A stretch of DNA of 64,000 nt from an uncultured Nitrososphaerota archaeon (GTDB taxonomy: Archaea > Korarchaeota > Korarchaeia > Korarchaeales > Korarchaeaceae). The notes under the pieces are model-generated. The model did not search any database and had not been told where the DNA came from. It saw only the letters and a list, made by a program, of their open reading frames with translations. How positions within the stretch are numbered: position 1 is the first letter of the stretch; each line of letters begins with the position of its first letter. Location of the stretch: the NCBI GenBank assembly GCA_964618805.1, contig CAZUBM010000001.1:127910-191909 (forward strand), given 5' to 3'. Of this stretch, positions 51,906 through 62,845 are shown piece after piece. The position numbers and the translations under genes are program-made.

Positions 51906-54900
51906 TCACTCCTTTATCGAGGATCTTATCTCTCGATAAACCTCTTCTATCGTCTCCTGATATTCAGCTCTTCCTTCCTCCACCATCGACATCTTCTCTT
52001 CGAGGATTTTTGTCCTCTCCTCGCTGATCAATTTTGGATAATTCTTTGTGAGGAAGTCATAGACCATGATCCCTAACTTAGTGGGAATCAACTTTCCCCC
52101 TTTCTCCACCACATACCTTCTCATAAGGAGTTTCTGTAGTATGATAGCATAGGTGGATGGCCTTCCTATTCCCTTTTCCCTCATGACTGCAATAACTTCC
52201 CCTTGAGTGTAGAGGGGGACCTTTGAGATCTTTCTATGCTCAATTCTTACCAAAACTTCTTCCTTGAGGGGCTTTTCTATTCTAACTTTGTATGGGTAGA
52301 TAAAAGTCCAGCCCGGGACTATGGCCTCGACATATCTCTCCAAATCAACTGATGCTCCTTCTATGAAGATTCTTACCTTCTGCTTCCTTAGCCTAGCTTC
52401 CTCGCTCATTGAAGCCATGAACCTTCTGAATATCAGATCGTAGAGCCTTAAATGGCCCCTTGTGAGATTTACTTGAGGCCTCAGAATGCCTTCCTCGACG
52501 TATCTAATCAGATCATCTAAGGCCATAGGCTTAGTCGGACGAATGCACTCATGAGCTCCCCCTTTCTCCCATACTCTTGGCCTAAACTTCTCCCCAAGAA
52601 ACATCCTTGCAACCCTAAGGCCTGCATCAGATACCCTGTGGCTGTCAGTTCTATGATAGGTAATGAGACCGGCCTCAAATAGGTTTTGAGCAAGATCCAT
52701 GGTTTCAGAGGTCCCCAACTTAAGAATCCTGTTGGCTTCCCTCAACATTTCATCGGTTGTAAATGGAGGTGGAGGAGATCAACGATCTCCTCAGCAACGA
52801 CTTTCACCTTAGCGCTGGTTTTTCCAGGCTTGCCTATCCTTCCTTCTATCCTTAGACTTATTCCATCCCCCTCAATAAGCGTCATATCCTTTTTCTCAAG
52901 ATGTTCCTTAAATCTCTGGATTACCCAACCAAGAGCAGGTGTTTGGACTCTCCCAGCAGAGAGATTTCTGTTCCTAAATACTCTTTGGAGAATTTGACTT
53001 AACTCAAATCCTATCCATCTATCCTCTATTCTCCTAACTATCTGAGCCTTTACCCTATCCTCTGATATATCCTTAAGTTCAGATAAGGCCCTAATTATTG
53101 CAGATTTAGTGACTTCGTGAAATTCAGCCCTGAATACTTCCTTGGAAAATGGTTTTATGAGAGCTGCTATATCCCAAGCTATTTTCTCTCCCTCCACGTC
53201 GGGATCTGTGCCTATGATAACCCTCTCATTCTCAAATGCGAGCCTCCTAAGTATACGTAAAGTGCGCTTTGAGTCAAGGATATCGCTTGAGCCACAAATT
53301 GGACATTTCTCTCCTTCCGTAAACTGATAACCGCAAACCTGGCATCTCTTCAAAGTACAGTAAACTGGCACGAAGAGGTCGTCCTCAACTAACACTCCAT
53401 GATATCCCTCCTTAGTTGATAGATCTACAACGTGCCCTCCTGTCGCGACTATCGTCACAAGCTGGTTCCCTGTAGAGAACTCATAGGCCGGTAAGCCCTC
53501 AATGTTCCGTCTGCTTGGCCTTCCAAAGAAGTTTGCAATCGTTCTAGCCTTATTTGGGCTCTCTACTATGAAAAGAAGGGTTTTAGGCATCATCTCAGCT
53601 GGAACCCTCTTTTCTCTTAGTTCACGGATCATCTTCCTATGCGCATCTATCTCCTCTCTAAGAGACCTCAAATCAACTTGGTCAATTTGCTTAAACTCCA
53701 CGTCAAAAACGCTAGCTCTCTTGACAAATGCGTTTAAGAGAGATCCTTCCTCAATCAAAAAAGCTGCTCCCTTAGATAGACCACCCGGGAATAGTCTGGA
53801 AGTCCTTCCTGAGCCTTGAATGTAGGTCCTTACGTCAGGCAGAAGTAGCTTGAGGCCATCCTCATACTTTATCACCACATCCCTTAATCTCGAGAGTTTC
53901 TCCAGGAGTTCGCTGTTGGAAAGAACTTGAAGCAGAAGATCTCTTGCCTTAACGAGATCTTTCTCAACAAAACGGCCACTTCTAAGTTTAAGTGATAGAA
54001 GCTTGAATTTCTTGCCTAACAAAGGAGAGATTGTTGAAAGGATTGTGCCGACAGCTCCTGGACTTGCTTCATCTAAGTTCTCTAAAGAAAACTCGAAATA
54101 AGGAGCTCCATAGAATATAGCGTATCTTATCCTCTCAGGAAGGTCTAACCCTCTGACCAACACTCCATACGGTTTAGCAGCTCCTACAAGAGCATCTAAC
54201 TCACCAGAAGCAAATGCCCGTATGCTGGCCTCTCTTGAACCCGAAATTCCCTCAACTCTAAGCCCAACAGACTCTAGGGCATCGATAACTTCATCTACTA
54301 ACTCTAACCTCGGAACATAGACGAGGGCTCCCCCTCCCATCTCCTCAACTATCTTGGATAGAACTTCCTTGCTTTTCTCTGGGACCTCTATGTCCTCTAC
54401 GTTCCTAAGAATTCCTTCCCTCAATACCCCTATATCGAATCCAAGAAGCCTTCTGGACAAAATGGCTCTTCTGCCAGGCCTGGCAGTTGCTGATGATAGC
54501 ATTATAACGCCCTTAGGTCTATCTATCCCATCCAAATCCACAGTTCTTAGGGCCGATTCCACAACATCCTTGGGAAAACCAAGCAAGACTAGAACTCTGT
54601 CGACGTTCCTTGAGTTCTTTAAGAGAGAATCGACATCATCTACAAAAATGAATGAGAACTTGTTGTTTGCCAAAATTTCAAATCTTCTCGCTAAAAACTG
54701 AGATGTTATTATAAGTACGTCAAAATCTCCTCCTTCTATCTTCTTTAGAAGTCTTTCCCTTTCCTTCAACTTCTTAACTCCACCGTAAGCTATTATTCTG
54801 AGTTCAAGGATCTCCCCTCTTAGCGTACGTGATGGCCCTCTCCTCTGCCTGCCTAACAAGGAGGACCGTCGGAACAACCACTAAGCTCTTTCCCAAACCT

Positions 54901-55182
54901 TTACTTGAGCAAAAAATGGACATGACTATGCCAAAAACCGTTTTTCCGATGCCTGTTGGAGCAATTGCAGCAAAACTTTGCTGTTGTAGTACTCTTTTTG
55001 CCCAGGAACGTTGTGCTTCCCACAGTTCAAATCCTGTGCATTTTTCAAAAGGAACAAAATTCGTCAAACAAACTTATGAGGCTACCAAGCTCATTTTCAG
55101 GCGAGCACCTTCTATCTAGCTTGTGAGTAATTAAGTCGAGCTCGTAGCCTGGGCAAAGCTTCTTGTAGACTGCTGGTATCAT
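51906..55182 (-). pseudogene. rgy: reverse gyrase, interrupted by three frameshifts
   Basis: ATG 55182 MIPAVYKKLCP; APTGIGKT, DDVD, SSAT, QGSGRTSR helicase motifs; VESPNKA Toprim; CQVC/CPIC Zn finger; ITYHRTDS active site. Frame breaks near 55048, 54810 and 52775. Confidence 0.92.
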
Positions 55183-55232: not shown

Positions 55233-57299
55233 TCAGGACAACGAAATTCTCTCTATGATCCCATCTCTCATTTCTACCCTTGTGTCAGCATATTTGAGCA
55301 CATCTTCTTGGTGACTAATCACAATCACCTGCTTAAAAGACTTCTTCAGGTTCCTTGCCATGAGTTCCATGATTTTCTCCCTTCTCTCCGAATCGCTAGA
55401 TGCAAGCACTTCGTCTAGAAATAGGAATTCTGGATGAGCTCCTCTAACGCTTGGGACTAGGGAAAGTGTGAAAGCAAGGCGCATTGCAAGTAGAATCTGA
55501 TCCTGAGTCCCCCCACTGAAGTAGCGAAGCTCCTTATATTCACCAGCGCTGGAATCGTATACAAACACCTCATAACTCTCGTTTACGGCAACAGCAAGGT
55601 ATCTGTTTATCGTTATTACCGGAAGGATTGTCGACATCCCCTCACTAACAGCAGGAATAACAGCCTTTCTTGAGGCTTCGGCAGACTCTTTTAGGAGTTT
55701 AATCGCATATTTTACGATGTTAAGCTTTCTTTCAAGCTCTTCAACCTTTTTCCGCTGCTCCTCAATTTTCTCCTCTAATCCAACGTTTTTCTCAAGATAC
55801 TCCCTAATACTACCTACTCTCTCCTCTAACTGCTTTAATTGACCTCTTCTATTCCCTAATTCTTGTGTCCATTTCCTTGATTCCCTCTCAATTTCTACTA
55901 AGACTTCTGAAGAGAATTCAGGGACCTCTGGAGGCAATTCAGGTCTAATTAACGATTCTAAAGAGGTTTTGATCCCATCAATTTCCTCCACAAGCTCATT
56001 CCTCTCTTCCTCAAGCTGTTCTATCTCTGAAACTATCCTCTTCTCCTCCTCAAGAAATTTATTGATCTCACGATATTTTTCAGCAGCCGCTCCAAGCTCT
56101 CTTGCCTCTTCTAGCAAATCTGCCCTTTCTTTTCTCAGCTGTCCAGCCCTTGCATGCATTTGTACGCCGTAAAGGGCTATAACTAACCCTATTGATAGGA
56201 TTGTAAGATACTTTATTCCTGAAATTATTGCCAATGGAATCCCAACTAAAGTTATGATTATTCCAATGAGTTCGAAGGGTCTTGCCTTTCTTTCTGACTT
56301 TTGTGCTTCTTTCTCCTTTGAATCTGCTAAATCTCTGATCTCCCTTAGCCTCAAGGAAGCATCCTCAAACCTTTTTCTAAGTTCTATCTCGCCCCTAATT
56401 TCGGACAATCTAAGCCTTTTTTCCTCAATTCTATGATCTATCGTTTCTAATCTTTTCAAGTTGGATTTTAACTCAGTTTCTAATTGTTGTTTGCTGCTAA
56501 CATACTCTTGAAACTTCCTAAGCGAGGCTAGTTTGGAGTTAAGGCTTCTTACCTTGCTCTCTGCGTAAGCTATCGAATTTTCCTGATCTTCAGATCCTTT
56601 TAACATCTGAATTTTGAGAAGGACTTCTTCTAACTCTTTCTCTCTGCTTTTATACTCCTCTAACTTTGTCCTTAGGCGTTCTAGTTCTTCTCTAGCTCTT
56701 CTAAGCTCGCCTGGTGTTTTAACAGTCCCTTCAAGGCGCTTTCTCTCTTCATTAAGCTCTTCAATGGCCTTATCGAAGCTTTCTCTCATCATTATCCTAT
56801 CTATAAGCTCTCTCCTATCCCTCCTCGTCTTCTCCTTTATTCTTGCCAAATCCTTTTGCATAACGAAAATTGTGCTTCTTGCCTCCTCTGGACCCATTCC
56901 TCCAAGCATGTTTGAAATTTCGACGTCAACAGCCTTCTTTCCGCTTGCTATAAGCTCTCTCCTATCCCCTCTTAGCCTAAAAAGCCTTGCAGTGCTCTTT
57001 ACTCCTCGCGCATCCTTCTCAATCGTTCTTAATACCTCGTATTTTCCGTCCTCTGATTCAAATCCAAGCCTAAGAAAAGCTCTGGTCCTTCCATATGAGA
57101 GATAATCTTCCAGCTTAGATTCTGTTTCCATAGGTCTACCGAAGAGAGAAAAGAATGCAGCCTCCATAACGCTAGTCTTACCGCTTTCGTTTGGACCCCT
57201 TATCCCTATGATGCCATTGGGAAATTCTAGCCTGAAAGGACCTTGGCTACCTCTCAAGTGTTTAAAACCGCTTGCCTCTAAGTAGATCAGCTTCACCAT
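55233..57299 (-). CDS. rad50: Rad50/SbcC/SbcE-like SMC ATPase with a central transmembrane hairpin and no zinc hook
   Basis: Walker A GPNESGKTS, Q-loop FVMQ, signature FSGGTQDQ, Walker B FLDE, ISH. Two coiled-coil arms flank a ~40-aa hydrophobic segment. Confidence 0.88.
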   Translation of the reverse strand: MVKLIYLEASGFKHLRGSQGPFRLEFPNGIIGIRGPNESGKTSVMEAAFFSLFGRPMETESKLEDYLSYGRTRAFLRLGFESEDGKYEVLRTIEKDARGVKSTARLFRLRGDRRELIASGKKAVDVEISNMLGGMGPEEARSTIFVMQKDLARIKEKTRRDRRELIDRIMMRESFDKAIEELNEERKRLEGTVKTPGELRRAREELERLRTKLEEYKSREKELEEVLLKIQMLKGSEDQENSIAYAESKVRSLNSKLASLRKFQEYVSSKQQLETELKSNLKRLETIDHRIEEKRLRLSEIRGEIELRKRFEDASLRLREIRDLADSKEKEAQKSERKARPFELIGIIITLVGIPLAIISGIKYLTILSIGLVIALYGVQMHARAGQLRKERADLLEEARELGAAAEKYREINKFLEEEKRIVSEIEQLEEERNELVEEIDGIKTSLESLIRPELPPEVPEFSSEVLVEIERESRKWTQELGNRRGQLKQLEERVGSIREYLEKNVGLEEKIEEQRKKVEELERKLNIVKYAIKLLKESAEASRKAVIPAVSEGMSTILPVITINRYLAVAVNESYEVFVYDSSAGEYKELRYFSGGTQDQILLAMRLAFTLSLVPSVRGAHPEFLFLDEVLASSDSERREKIMELMARNLKKSFKQVIVISHQEDVLKYADTRVEMRDGIIERISLS

Positions 57300-58453
57300 C
57301 CACCAGCCTCCCTGAGGGCATTAACAGCTAGTCTGTAGGCCTCATCAATGAGCTTTCTCTTATCCTCAGATTCCTCTTTAGCAATAATTTCCTCATAAAT
57401 CTTGCTTAGCATCTTAATTGGGCTTGCAAGACTTATTTGAGGCGCTGAGAAAGCATCCGGATACTGAAACTCCTCCTCAAACTTGAGATCGAAGAAGAGT
57501 TCTCTTGCCCTTGCTAGAATCTGATCCTTCGCATAAGTAGTCCTTATCTCAGGAAGCATGGCTCCCCTGATCCTTAGCCTAACAATCGCTTCCTTTGGGA
57601 CTTTCGAGGATGCTTCTTCAAGCAAGGATATTATCTTCTCAGTTAGGTTCTCCTTACCCGAGATCCCATATTCGATCGTCACCATGGGCTTTGTTGGAAG
57701 TTCAACCTGTTCTATCCTTTTTACCCCATTTTCATCTGCTTCTATTACTGTGAACCCTTTTTTCTCCTTTTCCTCGGAGAAAGAAAGCCTTTCTATGGTC
57801 CCAACGTAGCATATGGTTGGATCTCCCCACTGAACCGTGTGGACGTGCAAGTGGCCTGCTATTACAAGATCAACTTCCTTAGGTATGCTTGTCCTTCTTA
57901 TGACGTGCCTTTCCCTGCCTGGCGGGGCAAATCCCTCGATGACGTCATGAATCATAAGTATGTTCAAATCAGCATCAAATTCTCCCAATATCCTGACGTT
58001 TTTCAAGGGATCAGCTCCTTCCTCTATGATAAAGGGATTGAAGCCAATTCCACCTAATGCTACGGAGACTCCATTAACTTCGAACTTTTCCACCTCTATC
58101 ACATCTATTCTATCAAACAACCTTAGAAGGCCTGCTCTAGAGTAGACGTGAAGAGGAGTAGGCATTCTTCTGGTCTTAGGTCTGTCGTGATGACCTGGTA
58201 CAGCGTAAACCCTGACTCCAGCCCTGTTTAAGGTCCTCAATTCCTCTGCAAACTTTACTAAAGTTAAAATCCTTGGCCTCACTCCATCAAAAACATCTCC
58301 TGGCAGCAGAAAGAGATCAGCTTCCTTTTCTAATGCATATTCGACGGCCTTTCTAAAGTTCTCGTGAAAGTCCTTCCTTCGCTCTTCCTGAGAGCTAGGA
58401 GCCATCCAACTGAAAACGGGGTCTAGATGGGACTCTAAGGCGACTATTAGCAT
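57293..58453 (-). CDS. mre11: Mre11/SbcD-family metallophosphoesterase nuclease
   Basis: ESHLD, PGDVFD, PGHHD, MIH, AGHLH, Y.GTIER.SFSE..EKKG motifs. Confidence 0.9.
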   Translation of the reverse strand: MLIVALESHLDPVFSWMAPSSQEERRKDFHENFRKAVEYALEKEADLFLLPGDVFDGVRPRILTLVKFAEELRTLNRAGVRVYAVPGHHDRPKTRRMPTPLHVYSRAGLLRLFDRIDVIEVEKFEVNGVSVALGGIGFNPFIIEEGADPLKNVRILGEFDADLNILMIHDVIEGFAPPGRERHVIRRTSIPKEVDLVIAGHLHVHTVQWGDPTICYVGTIERLSFSEEKEKKGFTVIEADENGVKRIEQVELPTKPMVTIEYGISGKENLTEKIISLLEEASSKVPKEAIVRLRIRGAMLPEIRTTYAKDQILARARELFFDLKFEEEFQYPDAFSAPQISLASPIKMLSKIYEEIIAKEESEDKRKLIDEAYRLAVNALREAGGW

Positions 58454-58464
58454 GTGATAATCAC

Positions 58465-60075
58465 CTATCTTTTAGTATCCCAATCGTCCCCTCTAGGCAT
58501 GTCAACATCTCCGAGGCTTTCTATCTCTGCTTCCTCCCTCGCTGCCCTAAGCCTCTGTATCACATCGATGTCTGCTCCTCCCTCCTTAGATCTCCTTCTC
58601 TTTATCTTCACAGTAACGGGTACTCTAGTGAATTCACCAACTAAAACAGCTTCACCGACGTTTAATCCTGGAAGATCCCTTAGGAGTTCCTCACTTACTC
58701 TCTCAGCAGCTGCTCTGACAGCTTCTTGATCTCTAGGGTTTACCATTGAAAGGATTATTTGGTTCTGACACATGCTAAGGCTATCAGGATCTATCTTGCA
58801 TGGTCTCTGACTTATCAGCACTAAGTAAATTCCAAATTTCCTCCCTTCACTAGCTATGACATTCACTATCCTTTTAGAATGGGTTTGTCTATCTGCTGGA
58901 ACGATCTTATGGGCCTCTTCTAACACCAGAAATACGGGATATCTGAATTTACCGCTGGAAACAGCCCAGTAAATGTCAGAAAGCACTTTAGTTGCGGTAA
59001 AATCAAATGCATACCCAGTAACGCCTGAAAGGTCGATGACGGAAACGTGCCAAGGCCTTAGGATGTCATGCCAGGGTGTTGTGCTTTCTCCAAATATAGG
59101 CAAACCTAGGAGCCTTTGTCTAACCCTTTCTGCAGCAGATGAGGCCGCTAAACGTAGTCTGTTATCTTTTTCCTCTTCAGCCATTACGTTCAGCCTTTGT
59201 ATGAGGTCAGAGGCAGTATAACTCCCCTTGTTTTCTTTGAGAAAATCAAGTGCTTTGGAAATAGCTCTCCTTATATGAACGGATGACTGAGGTATGTCTA
59301 ACATGCCAAACAAGTCCTCAGGTTCCAGATCTGCGAACCTAATCGTGAACTCATTTACCTCGGCTAATATTTGTGATGGTGAATATCTGCCAGTGCTTCC
59401 GGGATTTCTAAATATGGTAACTCTCTCAACGTACTCCATCGGTCTACCATCTTGAGTCTGGCCGAGGAAGACGTAATCAGCATGAGGATCAAGTATCACG
59501 ATAGTTGCTCCCTTCCTCATCAAACCCTCAACTAGAACGGCTGCAGTATTGCTCTTTCCAGCACCAGTTGCTGCCAATATCGCGAGATGTCTCCTCAAAC
59601 CCTGAACAGAAATCGAGACAGGAACTTCTGGCCTAGTTATCAAGCAACCAAGCTCTATACTTGCCTCTCCATATGAAAAGAACTCTTTTAGCAGGCTGGA
59701 GGGAGCTCTATATACTACCTTTCCAGGAACAATCGCCCTCCTTGGTATTCTTACGTTTCCGTCCTTTGATAGATATCCTAAGACCCTTGCCTGAGCATAT
59801 GCTACCCTTCTATCAACCCCCATGTCAGCAATTCTCTCAACTGCTTGGTGATCTGTCGTAGGTTGAAGCACCATGCTGGCACTAACCGGCTTTTCTACCT
59901 GAGCGAGGACGAAAACTCTCTCCATACCTCGAGACGTCCTCTCATAGGATTCAACTATAACATATTCCCATCTCTCTGGAGGGCCAGAAGAAGGATCGCA
60001 GGAGAATATGAAGCTAGTAGGGGTGGCCTCCCCCACTATCCTTCCTAGAACATCGAGCTCAGATAATCGAAACAC
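58465..60075 (-). CDS. herA: HerA bipolar DNA translocase/ATPase
   Basis: HAS-barrel N-terminus, RHLAILAATGAGKS, DPHADY, LEEAH, EGRKFG, SQRP. GTG start at 60075 after a GAGGTGA RBS (the ORF track starts at 60147). Confidence 0.93.
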   Translation of the reverse strand: MFRLSELDVLGRIVGEATPTSFIFSCDPSSGPPERWEYVIVESYERTSRGMERVFVLAQVEKPVSASMVLQPTTDHQAVERIADMGVDRRVAYAQARVLGYLSKDGNVRIPRRAIVPGKVVYRAPSSLLKEFFSYGEASIELGCLITRPEVPVSISVQGLRRHLAILAATGAGKSNTAAVLVEGLMRKGATIVILDPHADYVFLGQTQDGRPMEYVERVTIFRNPGSTGRYSPSQILAEVNEFTIRFADLEPEDLFGMLDIPQSSVHIRRAISKALDFLKENKGSYTASDLIQRLNVMAEEEKDNRLRLAASSAAERVRQRLLGLPIFGESTTPWHDILRPWHVSVIDLSGVTGYAFDFTATKVLSDIYWAVSSGKFRYPVFLVLEEAHKIVPADRQTHSKRIVNVIASEGRKFGIYLVLISQRPCKIDPDSLSMCQNQIILSMVNPRDQEAVRAAAERVSEELLRDLPGLNVGEAVLVGEFTRVPVTVKIKRRRSKEGGADIDVIQRLRAAREEAEIESLGDVDMPRGDDWDTKR

Positions 60076-61414
60076 GCCTCTCACCTCTTGTGTGCAACTC
60101 CATCCACCCCAACCTGCTCCACAACAGGGGCTCGTAGATCTCAGCAAAAGCCTTTCTACTTATTTTTACCATCCTATCAACATCTGCTAGCCAAACGTTA
60201 TGATTTTCCGGGTTTGCATAACCCTTAATCAGGGTAGCCATTATTTTTGAGAAGAGGGATTTCTCATAATCATAGGTTCTAAGCGCGTGAACCCTCTCGA
60301 AGTCACCGATCATAAAATCTAGGCCAAAAACCCAAGCTGGAATATCAATTCTAACTGGCTGATCCATTTCAGAGAACTTACAACAAGTCGTTACAATTGC
60401 TGGCAGCTCTAAAATGAGATCTATCGCTTTTCTCACCTCTTTTTCAGCCTTAATAGGGTTCTTTGCGCTTCTTGTGGCTCTTCTTGCGATATCATCTGGT
60501 CTGGCTTGGAGTTCTAGGAACAAGGCCCTGCTTGTGGATGTGTAAGGTCCAACCAATAACGGTTCTGATAGTCCTTTCTCCTCCATGCAGCTCATAATAA
60601 CCGCAAAATCGCTTCTCTCTATCAATATTTCGGAAGCTATATCTAAGATCTTCCTGAGAATCCCTCTATATCTCTCATTTATTTCCAAGAGCTGGGTCAT
60701 GGAAACTTTTGGATCTGATTCAAGGGCTCCAGCGGCTGTGCTTATGATTATCTGATCCTCTTCATTTATTAAGCCTGAAATTCGCTCTAACTCCTCGTCT
60801 AAAAGTTGAAACAGGACCATCCTTCTGAGAGGGTAAGCCCTGCTGTCCTTTGATACCCCAACTATAGGTATTTTCCTCTCCCTGCACGCCTCAAGCAGCT
60901 GAAAAAGTGCATCTGCATATTGTATGGCCAAATCTGAAGGGATCCTACCCAAGTTGTAGACGGAGGCCAGCTCTCTGGCTATCAAGGATCCATCTACTAG
61001 GACTAGAAATTCACCGCTGGTTTCTTCTATGACCTTTCTCAGAACTTCATGTTCCAAAGTTTCTCCCATTCTCGAAATCACGTCTCTAACTTCCATAGAA
61101 CCTAAAAGAGGTCTGAGATCAAGAACTCTCTCCTCTTTTTGCCTGCCATCCGGCCCATAGAGAACAGCAGCAGCTCTTGCGAGAAGTATTGAGATGCCAG
61201 GAGCGTATTCTCTGCTTAGAAAGCTGGAATCGGACGCTAAAACTTTTTTAAACGGTTCTATGGGTTGAAAACTGTCAAAATCTAGCCAAAGAGACTTGAA
61301 TCTCTCCTCAACCTCTCTGTTTATAGCTTTTAATTCTCCTCTACCAAAAGCAGCTTCAATCTCTCTTCTTCTTCTCTCGACTGCTTCAGCAAATAAATCC
61401 AAAAATCTTGGCAA
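60059..61414 (-). CDS. nurA: NurA 5'-3' nuclease
   Basis: LASDSS, E.LE, LVDGSL, GVSKDS, GY...WLA.VD..VK. Overlaps the herA start. Confidence 0.88.
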   Translation of the reverse strand: MPRFLDLFAEAVERRRREIEAAFGRGELKAINREVEERFKSLWLDFDSFQPIEPFKKVLASDSSFLSREYAPGISILLARAAAVLYGPDGRQKEERVLDLRPLLGSMEVRDVISRMGETLEHEVLRKVIEETSGEFLVLVDGSLIARELASVYNLGRIPSDLAIQYADALFQLLEACRERKIPIVGVSKDSRAYPLRRMVLFQLLDEELERISGLINEEDQIIISTAAGALESDPKVSMTQLLEINERYRGILRKILDIASEILIERSDFAVIMSCMEEKGLSEPLLVGPYTSTSRALFLELQARPDDIARRATRSAKNPIKAEKEVRKAIDLILELPAIVTTCCKFSEMDQPVRIDIPAWVFGLDFMIGDFERVHALRTYDYEKSLFSKIMATLIKGYANPENHNVWLADVDRMVKISRKAFAEIYEPLLWSRLGWMELHTRGERRVSII

Positions 61415-61489
61415 CTTTCTCTTTATTATGTTGTAAAGCCTCTTAATAATATCCCCCAGTAGGTATGCTCCTCCGATCGGTGAGAGAAC

Positions 61490-62253
61490 TCAAGTGCTCC
61501 CAGCCTTCTTAAAAATGAACTCGCAGTAGGGATCTCCCATAGCAGCACATTTTACCTCCTTGGACTCCAATTCAACTCCCAAGAATTCAGAGAAAAGTCC
61601 TCCAAGTATCCTCTTACAAAATGACATCTAGGCCTACTACTCCTTCCTTCAAAAGCCGCTGACTCATATAAATCATAGATGCAAATTCTTATGAACTTTC
61701 TATCCAAATCTGCTTCTAAAAGCTCAGCTATTCCCCAGCCTGCAGCTTGAAGAGATCTTAGGTCTTCTTCCAGGAATTCTTTTGTTATTTTCTGAGAACC
61801 AAATATTTTTCCACTTATTTCTCCTCTGGTTTTTCCTAGGAAGTAAAGGAAGGCTTCTCCACCGGTACCATATTTTTCATGGATCTCCTTAACATAGAAA
61901 GATAGGCCATTTCTGTCATCTAAGATCATCCTTTGTCCTCCTGAGTCTACAGTAATTGGATAGCACAAGTTGTTGAAGATTTTATCTTTTATTGGGCTTT
62001 TACGAACTCTATATCCCTCAATTTCTCCTTTTTCTTTCAAAGATGAAAGTAACTTTTCAAGATTTTCATAAGCATTGCCGATTTTCAAAAAGCAAGCTAA
62101 ATAGACTACATCCTCGCGCAAAGTTAGGTTAAGCGACACGGGTTCGAAGCCCTTATCTGAAAACTATGTCATGATTAAGGCAAGTCTTCTAGCAAGTTCC
62201 TTTCTTTTTAGCTTGATTGCTGTCTCTACGACTTTCTCGGCAGGAGATTGCAT
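61490..62253 (-). pseudogene. ACT-like + V4R domain protein with an in-frame TAG and a frameshift
   Basis: ATG 62253, TAG at 62166-62164, then the open frame LQAAGWG...CHFVRGYL. A missing G near 61600 would restore EVKCAAMGDPYCEF to a TGA at 61490. Confidence 0.75.
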
Positions 62254-62332: not shown

Positions 62333-62845
62333 TTAGCGTGACCTCATCAACTCAATTAGTTGCTCGAGGACTTCTATTCTGCTCTTCCTTCCATCAGCCA
62401 TGGACTTTAGAACCTGACCTATACCTTTTCTATTCTTGAGAATGAATGAGAATGCCATTAAGTTCACCATCATCAGGTACTCGGGCCCAGAAAAGTTTAC
62501 ATGCCACTTAATTAGATCAAGAATATCTTCCTTCTTTGCAGCTCCTTGTTCCACCCTTGAGATCATATAATCATATTTTCTCAAAGCCTCAATCAACTTG
62601 GATCCAACCAAATTTTCACAGTTTTTGATGGTCTCATCCGTAAGCGACGGATAGAGCAACTTAGCAATGCGGCGCAAGAAGTCTCTTCTCATCCTAGAAT
62701 CCATTGAGAGATAGTTAAAAGCAAGCTTCACTTCTTCTTTTTCTGAAACTCTGGAGAGAACTGAATAAAACCCCCCTATTTTTTCTTCTAAATAGCTAAT
62801 GCACAGTATTGTCTTGGCTAACTCAAGTGAGCTTTGTTCTTCCAT
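62333..62845 (-). CDS. ferritin/rubrerythrin-like four-helix protein with degenerate metal ligands
   Basis: LEEKIGGFY..L....E.KLAF.YLS.DS and LKSMADG..S.IEVL pattern, with no ExxH. Confidence 0.6.
   Translation of the reverse strand: MEEQSSLELAKTILCISYLEEKIGGFYSVLSRVSEKEEVKLAFNYLSMDSRMRRDFLRRIAKLLYPSLTDETIKNCENLVGSKLIEALRKYDYMISRVEQGAAKKEDILDLIKWHVNFSGPEYLMMVNLMAFSFILKNRKGIGQVLKSMADGRKSRIEVLEQLIELMRSR

Follow-up and report, generated by a model that had tools for sequence, protein, structure and literature searches.

The canonical archaeal arrangement of the genes discussed here is reportedly a nurA-herA-mre11-rad50 operon, said to have been described by Constantinesco and colleagues in 2004, and the zinc hook, a CxxC motif at the midpoint of Rad50, is a dimerisation module. 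Here we describe a locus in a 64,000-nucleotide (nt) stretch of contig CAZUBM010000001.1 of an uncultured archaeon (hereafter the window), in which paralogues of nurA, herA and mre11 are coupled to the gene of a Rad50-like ATPase of 688 amino acids (aa) that lacks the hook and carries in its middle a hydrophobic segment predicted to fold as a helical hairpin. The locus shares with the canonical system the four gene families in one operon, the motifs of an ATP-binding cassette (ABC) head and two long antiparallel arms, and canonical archaeal Rad50 represents the closest solved structure and fold to the window ATPase. It differs in that the ATPase has neither a CxxC hook nor any cysteine, but a hydrophobic hairpin instead; in its shorter arms (about 175 aa, in a protein of 688 aa compared to roughly 900 aa for the Rad50 of sister genera); in its signature motif, which reads SGGTxDQ and not SGGE; and in its position in a separate clade when the head columns are compared. 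Its NurA, HerA and Mre11 are likewise paralogues of the canonical set, and the two sets occur side by side in one related genome (G009).

Among bacterial proteins, the only characterised relative found in the open full texts searched is SbcE (YhaN) of Bacillus subtilis. In the sections of PMC2811018 that deal with it, SbcE is described as an SMC/SbcC-like protein without CxxC, whose gene adjoins that of the SbcD-like nuclease SbcF (YhaO), and whose "unique central domain" is rich in hydrophobic residues and contains a conserved Pro. According to the same sections, over-expression left SbcE and its central domain entirely insoluble, loss of SbcE affected double-strand break (DSB) repair and transformation, and in competent cells the protein accumulated at the poles, depending on ComK. 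The window ATPase resembles SbcE in the absence of CxxC, in its hydrophobic central domain and in the position of its gene beside that of an SbcD/Mre11-like nuclease, and SbcE-sized bacterial proteins (954-962 aa, from Veillonella) belong to the hairpin clade described below and carry an S-x-G-x-x-DQ signature; it is, however, much shorter, falls in an archaeal subclade and has its own HerA and NurA. SbcCD of the Escherichia coli type is also a pair of a nuclease and an SMC-like ATPase, which processes DNA ends and hairpins, and its head fold is matched by that of the window ATPase (7yzp_C), but SbcC retains the CxxC hook, whereas the window ATPase groups away from all hook-bearing proteins. 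With the SLATT two-transmembrane-helix (2TM) effectors (Pfam PF18181) the window ATPase shares a two-helix hydrophobic hairpin set between helices, although the window locus is without SMODS or SLOG partner genes and the match stays under the Pfam cut-off. The literature search, subscription-only papers and supplements lying outside it, turned up no account of a Rad50 from archaea that lacks the hook or is anchored in the membrane, of the archaeal module or of a membrane reading of it, and the relevant passages of a review (PMC7752040) do not mention hook-less or membrane-anchored Rad50 variants. What appears to be new is the reading of the apex as a predicted membrane-type hairpin and the single origin of the clade, together with the dedicated archaeal four-gene module and its role as an apparent substitute for canonical Rad50 in one genus.

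The four genes are arranged head to tail along the minus strand of the window (Table 1), with a 7-nt overlap between mre11 and the ATPase gene, an 11-nt gap between herA and mre11, and overlapping nurA and herA open reading frames (ORFs). The first-pass annotation had described four coupled genes, an ATPase devoid of cysteine, a hydrophobic midpoint at about nt 56160-56280 and a signature of the SbcE/YhaN type, and all of this stands: ORFs, Pfam families and gene spacing agree with four coupled genes, the ATPase contains 0 Cys and hence no CxxC zinc hook, the hydrophobic segment (FELIG...LYGV) covers residues 342-379 (nt 56163-56276), and the signature goes with the apex type across the family, as detailed below. 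None of the module proteins reaches an NCBIfam equivalog cut-off: bit scores against cut-offs were 119.8 against 700 for Rad50 (PRK03918), 40.4 against 478.5 for sbcc, 234 against 970 for helicase_HerA and 76.6 against 500 for Mre11_Sulfo, and NurA had 0 NCBIfam matches. With scores so far under the cut-offs, and with a NurA that matches no NCBIfam model, the four proteins are best seen as divergent relatives of the textbook genes. The true start of herA may lie slightly downstream of the annotated one, because its homologues align from about residue 14-35 in tblastn comparisons.

The Walker A, signature and Walker B (FLFLDE, residues 625-630) motifs of the ATPase make up a split ABC head, with FSGGTQDQILLAMRLA found at residues 594-609; within Walker A, residues G35, N37, E38, G40 and K41 are invariant or nearly so across the hairpin family. 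The AlphaFold2 (AF2) model, based on 57 relatives, has a mean predicted local distance difference test score (pLDDT) of 87.1 and shows the split ABC head and a Rad50-like fold, in which helices extend across about residues 198-562, reverse direction at residue 361 and form two long antiparallel coiled-coil arms. The top Foldseek matches to this model are all Rad50 chains (7zr1, 5dny, 3av0, 3qku and others; best 7zr1_D, E 1.7e-19). Among solved structures, those closest in sequence are archaeal Rad50 heads for the ATPase and archaeal Mre11 for its partner. No NCBIfam model names the hairpin family, and four further members, both archaeal and bacterial, also miss all cut-offs. The Pfam model AAA_27 (PF13514), which we take to represent YhaN, is matched by 42 of 57 hairpin-type relatives (E <= 1e-3).

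The apex of the ATPase is strongly hydrophobic. The 19-residue Kyte-Doolittle mean rises to 2.58 at residues 339-383, in the exact middle of the protein, and every stretch of that length starting at 339-365 exceeds 1.4, a value exceeded elsewhere by only two isolated stretches of the C-terminal head. An uncharged hydrophobic span of 40 aa lies at the midpoint of the coiled coil, and the hairpin region (residues 342-383) is flanked by KSERKAR on its N side and HARAGQLRKER on its C side. In the AF2 model a helix at 312-360 is followed by a helix at 362-410, with a single non-helical residue (361) between them at the S360-G361 turn; the predicted hairpin helices run from about 343 to 360 and from 362 to 381, the hydrophobic part being the last 18-20 residues or so of each arm. 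The same features recur among relatives. The span with no more than a single charge was measured in 149 hook-less relatives; its median length is 43 aa (interquartile range 40-47), with 0.18 Lys or Arg (K/R) and 0.08 Asp or Glu (D/E) per span, and its middle third contains a Pro in 99 of these relatives and a Pro or Gly in 142. In 165 relatives the 12-residue flanks carry 2.70 K/R before and 2.33 after the span, with 0.76 and 0.78 D/E respectively, compared to a coiled-coil background of 2.36 K/R and 2.57 D/E per 12 residues; being basic and depleted of acidic residues, both flanks follow the positive-inside pattern. The length of the span stays at two membrane helices across proteins of 570-1440 aa. 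The apex has, in sequence and model, the properties of an integral membrane helical hairpin, that is, two hydrophobic helices, each about 18-20 aa long, with a short turn between them and a positive charge on the flanks, and the combination of two helix lengths, a Pro/Gly turn and basic flanks fits the signature of a predicted membrane hairpin with both termini inside (N-in/C-in). Such a topology would suit the ATPase, since its heads must lie in the cytoplasm.

Of the 48 matches to a word-based search, 31 possess the hydrophobic segment in the middle and lack a CxxC; in 15, the most distant ones, a CxxC sits at the midpoint and the segment is absent, and two had neither, one of these being a fragment. 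An exhaustive search of cluster representatives yielded 6169 clusters with E <= 1e-3, 171 of them with E <= 1e-30. The apex was then scored in the best 150 representatives, from which nine shorter than 550 aa were dropped. Among the resulting 141 full-length proteins the segment was present in 138 (alone in 137, accompanied by an off-centre CxxC in one), three had neither segment nor hook, and none had a hook alone. This recurrence makes a chance origin of the hydrophobic midpoint improbable. The hairpin family is very large, and has been overlooked rather than unknown; the window ATPase is one member of it and no singular oddity.

For the phylogeny, the N-terminal 185 and C-terminal 190 residues of the heads were aligned (73 rows, 370 columns) and analysed with IQ-TREE. 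The rows comprised 42 archaeal and bacterial hairpin proteins, 26 hook proteins, including canonical Rad50 of the window's own family, and an outgroup of five SMC-related proteins without an apex. All 42 hairpin rows fell on one side of a single branch, with an ultrafast bootstrap (UFBoot) of 99, a Shimodaira-Hasegawa-like approximate likelihood ratio test (SH-aLRT) value of 94 and recovery in 99% of 200 bootstrap trees, and a quicker tree gave the same split between hairpin and hook proteins. The window ATPase was placed in an archaeal subclade together with three other proteins (P0005, P0006 and P0008). The hairpin clade also takes in YhaN-sized bacterial proteins, namely those of Veillonella, whose genes adjoin an SbcD-like gene, as well as records from Desulfuromonadales, Planctomycetota, Bathyarchaeia, Nitrososphaeria, Thermofilaceae and Thor- and Promethearchaeota. 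The signature motif co-varies with the apex: in the 42 hairpin rows it reads SGGTxDQ (T in 35, D in 39 and Q in 38), while in the hook rows it reads SGGE, with E at the position of T in 24 of 26. Judged by these head sequences, the hairpin-apex proteins are a distinct clade of the Rad50/SbcC family with an apparently single origin.

The genome to which the window belongs (G000) is a draft metagenome bin of 2.18 Mb, 93.7% complete. Apart from an SMC-related protein of 604 aa without an apex, no other Rad50-like match was found in it, and no zinc-hook (PF04423) match above the cut-off occurred anywhere in the genome. It contains one clear Mre11 match, a second one being weak (E 1.1e-5). The 604-aa SMC-like ATPase is encoded about 33 kb past the operon, outside the window (L002 1486..3300, G000:C1); it has neither hook nor hairpin, resembles archaea-specific SMC-related proteins, is kept in congeners (L079, L080) and belongs to the outgroup of the tree. 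Three further HerA-NurA pairs, with no adjoining Mre11 or Rad50, are located at G000:C17:14380-16291, G000:C22:3834-5327 and G000:C11:34132-35360.

Orthologues of the hairpin ATPase, 74-84% identical, are present in three of four congeners, and none was found in congener G001, a genome 71% complete. Sister genera of the same family encode a canonical Rad50 of about 895-1036 aa adjoining HerA and Mre11, with a midpoint CxxC in all 13 of the Rad50 loci examined. One sister-genus genome, G009, has both modules: a canonical hook operon HerA-Mre11-Rad50 (L102), and a NurA-HerA-Mre11-hairpin ATPase module that is cut by the end of one contig (L103) and resumes on a second (L104), its proteins being 31% (NurA), 43% (HerA), 48% (Mre11) and 44-50% (ATPase) identical to those of the window. 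Fragments of the hairpin type were found in G012 and G005, and a full hairpin module in G019, from another family of the same order. Among the 32 genomes of the phylum with a completeness of 80% or more, 6 gave hairpin-level matches to the family profile. A further hairpin-type copy, in G008 (L090, G008:C36:5177-6307), contains an in-frame TGA; the gene is possibly in decay, and the genome has a canonical Rad50 as well. Other frames considered as hairpin-type candidates were rejected: the SMC-like frames of about 758-814 aa that were examined in G013 and G012 lack both hook and hairpin, and the frame on G014:C4, a contig of 5.5 kb, encodes a hook Rad50.

Replacement of a canonical rad50 at the same locus is not supported, because the neighbours of the window operon (reverse gyrase and the upstream ORFs) lie away from the canonical operons of the sister genera; they are syntenic only with congener G002. 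On contig G002:C14 of this congener (L131 1615..1815) a 66-aa ORF corresponds to no more than the end portion of a Rad50-like ATPase, with Walker B, D-loop and H-loop. A canonical rad50, since lost, may have left this fragment behind; no counterpart was found in G000.

By tblastn with the four window proteins, 46 public loci found with the family alignment were surveyed. NurA, HerA, Mre11 and the ATPase occurred together in nine of them (L011, L013, L014, L016, L018, L020, L021, L023, L026), which come from Bathyarchaeia, Thermofilaceae, and Thor- and Promethearchaeota. One locus (L022) carried HerA-Mre11-ATPase, and six archaeal loci carried Mre11-ATPase only, despite several kb of upstream sequence. 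At the bacterial hairpin-type loci neither HerA nor NurA was found with the window proteins as queries. Among the 25 locus ATPases examined, the hairpin was present in 24 and a CxxC in none. The Mre11 proteins also differ between the two systems, as a comparison of 19 hairpin-associated with eight hook-associated sequences showed. In 17 of the 19, the last three residues of motif I are HLD or HLN, and in all eight hook-associated sequences they are HLG or HIG, while motif III reads GHHD in nine and GNH(D/E) in six of the 19, compared to GNH(D/E) in seven of the eight. In the window Mre11 these motifs read ESHLD instead of DxHLG and GHHD instead of GNHD; the Glu for Asp in motif I is common only to the window, congener G002 and G009. 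The four genes form a paralogous module, apart from the canonical hook-type nurA-herA-mre11-rad50 operon.

Taken together, we consider it probable that the module encodes a membrane-tethered complex of the Mre11-Rad50 type, with its own HerA-NurA resection motor, that carries out housekeeping end processing in this genus. In such a complex, the two arms of about 175 residues would run antiparallel from a cytoplasmic ABC head, and the hairpin at their tips would enter the cytoplasmic membrane, its two ends remaining on the inner side, and anchor the complex at a distance of about 25 nm from it. The head would pair with the co-translated Mre11-type nuclease, after which the HerA helicase and NurA nuclease of the module would resect the DNA ends. 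Mre11 and the ATPase are a putative pair of partners, their genes adjoining with the 7-nt overlap. Since the hairpin module is the only one found in the window's genus, it most likely serves DSB processing as a housekeeping function, at or near the membrane. The first-pass annotation had likewise proposed tethering to the membrane, and in silico this holds up, insertion being predicted from the span length, the charge pattern and the fit of the AF2 helix-turn-helix. The checks that it suggested turned out in the same direction: the ATPase groups with SbcE/YhaN-sized bacterial proteins, away from hook-bearing Rad50/SbcC (99/94), no separate hook rad50 was found in the 93.7%-complete genome, and the variant occurs together with nurA-herA-mre11 in the archaeal lineages listed above. 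The wider proposition that archaea possess a second complete resection machine, membrane-anchored by its coiled-coil tip, and that this has displaced canonical Rad50 in at least one thermophilic genus, is put forward tentatively, with more doubt than belief.

Several points weigh against the membrane-tethered housekeeping complex. Hydropathy, charge bias and AF2 cannot tell a membrane hairpin from a buried hydrophobic bundle. In the passages of the 2009 paper on SbcE (PMC2811018) that bear on this matter, the protein is not called a membrane protein. The proteins of Veillonella stand in for Bacillota in the tree, B. subtilis SbcE not being among its rows, and the window ATPase scores 18.3 bits with AAA_27, under the cut-off of 22, and lies under every curated NCBIfam cut-off as well. 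In its Mre11 partner the first metal-binding Asp is replaced by Glu and the Asn of motif III by His, so that nuclease activity is assumed rather than certain. Finally, congener G004 (78% complete) has a 3.7-kb contig (G004:C98, L070/L130) with an Mre11 and a hook Rad50 of 697 aa. The neighbour of this Rad50 in the tree is a protein of the distantly related G027, on short branches, and the protein was not found in G000-G003; the contig likely represents contamination or a recent transfer. Because of this contig and the draft state of the genomes, it is not certain that the hairpin module is the only Mre11-Rad50 system of the genus.

If the apex were cytosolic, two hairpins would form a hydrophobic four-helix dimerisation bundle in place of the hook, and the complex would act on the nucleoid. 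This would agree with the dimerising role of the zinc hook that it replaces, with the confidence of the AF2 apex, which at a pLDDT of 74-80 is the lowest in the model, and with the behaviour of SbcE-YFP in growing cells, described in the corresponding section of PMC2811018 as dynamic foci "usually on the nucleoids" that move from pole to pole within a minute. A nearly chargeless span of 40-47 aa with basic, acid-depleted flanks is, however, the pattern of a membrane hairpin and not of a soluble bundle, the span is held at two membrane-helix lengths whatever the size of the protein, and the insolubility reported for SbcE and its central domain points the same way; we regard a cytosolic bundle as distinctly unlikely. 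A complex prediction for two copies of residues 295-430 scored 0.03 and gave no answer, and it speaks neither for nor against self-association of the apex. Nor is the locus readily explained as an artefact, in which a mis-assembled, chimeric or decaying rad50 has lost its hook. The bin is a draft and the adjoining reverse gyrase gene is broken in frame, but the ATPase ORF is intact and shows no indel compared to independent contigs of the same sample, three congeners have orthologues with the same hairpin, and hundreds of relatives share the architecture, by which this explanation is effectively excluded.

It is rather unlikely, but deserves to be weighed, that the main task of the module is conflict or DNA entry and not housekeeping repair. 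Held at the membrane, it would resect linear DNA crossing the envelope, either DNA imported for recombination, as with SbcE in competence, or viral or plasmid DNA that is to be destroyed; in an abortive-infection version of this idea, the hairpin itself would be a membrane-perturbing effector. The patchy distribution in the window's phylum would be in line with such a role, as would the coexistence with a complete canonical module in G009 and the ComK-dependent recruitment of SbcE to the competence pole; in addition, PMC9905601 reports, in the passages concerned, rad50 and herA-like genes beside DNA-import (Ted) loci in Thermoproteales. On the other hand, no Mre11-Rad50 pair other than that of the hairpin module was found in the window's genus, and the same passages state that the hyperthermophiles investigated to date cannot do without HerA-NurA and Mre11-Rad50, which together make a purely accessory role unlikely here. 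No defence or import genes were seen adjoining the operon among the ORFs and Pfam matches of the window. As to an effector, SLATT_1 matches residues 324-428 of the ATPase with an E of 1.4e-4, yet the 22.3 bits lie under the cut-off of 26.3 and only two of 57 members show the match, while PADLOC returned only generic similarities (LmuB, mad3, PbeC, HerA), to SMC or HerA models, that score under repair models. The SLATT_1 similarity and the generic PADLOC matches do not support an effector role.

The features of the operon are collected in Table 1. The A/T-rich stretch immediately upstream of nurA is a possible archaeal promoter of the TATA type. Further upstream, two ORFs on the minus strand (61552-62139 and 62333-62845; 195 and 170 aa) are without a Pfam match and are kept in congener G002, with 81% and 60% identity respectively. 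Directly downstream of the operon, the reverse gyrase gene (51906-55067, minus strand) is split into three frames (87 + 711 + 280 aa), while G002 has a single intact ORF of 1098 aa at the same position (L108 4653..7949). Independent contigs of the same sample and the window differ by single-base deletions at 52214 and 54217. The frame breaks may therefore be assembly indels and not a real pseudogene. The window DNA is present in metagenome runs from hydrothermal vents; a look for RNA data turned up none.

Table 1. Features of the hairpin-type operon in the window (positions in nt of the window; residues are those of the ATPase).
Feature	Position	Strand	Description and evidence
nurA paralogue, first gene of the module	60059..61414	-	451 aa; Pfam NurA PF09376, 54.7 bits, E 1.4e-14
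herA paralogue	58465..60147	-	560-aa ORF from first TTG; Pfam PF01935 HerA central domain, 137.5 bits, E 9e-40
mre11/sbcD-type nuclease partner	57293..58453	-	386 aa; Pfam Metallophos; best NCBIfam Mre11_Sulfo
Hook-less Rad50/SbcC-like ATPase, hairpin-apex clade	55233..57299	-	688 aa, 0 Cys; Pfam SMC_N, AAA_23, SbcC_Walker_B
Walker A GPNESGKT, residues 35-42	57174..57197	-	from translation; family conservation
Predicted apex hydrophobic helical hairpin, residues 342-383	56151..56276	-	hydropathy, 40-aa uncharged span, AF2, flank charges
Signature FSGGTQDQ, residues 594-601	55497..55520	-	clade-specific SGGTxDQ form
A/T-rich stretch (ATTATTAAGA, CATAATAAAG) immediately upstream of nurA	61415..61460	-	read from the sequence alone

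The zinc hook has been treated as the universal and functionally essential apex of Rad50, and the hairpin clade represents an alternative to it, of apparently single origin and predicted membrane type, that occurs in thousands of archaeal and bacterial protein clusters. If the wider proposition on a second, membrane-anchored resection machine holds, the zinc hook, seen as a defining trait of Rad50, would be dispensable for cellular life once a membrane-embedded hairpin takes over the tethering at the apex, and the processing of DSBs, or of DNA entering the cell, would happen at the membrane. The clade turns three matters into testable questions: what the apex must do (dimerise, tether or localise), whether the processing of DNA ends in prokaryotes is spatially organised at the envelope, and how DNA import or virus entry couples to resection. 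The 2009 data on SbcE, with its polar and competence-dependent localisation and its insoluble central domain, would likewise be open to a new reading, for which B. subtilis offers a tractable model.

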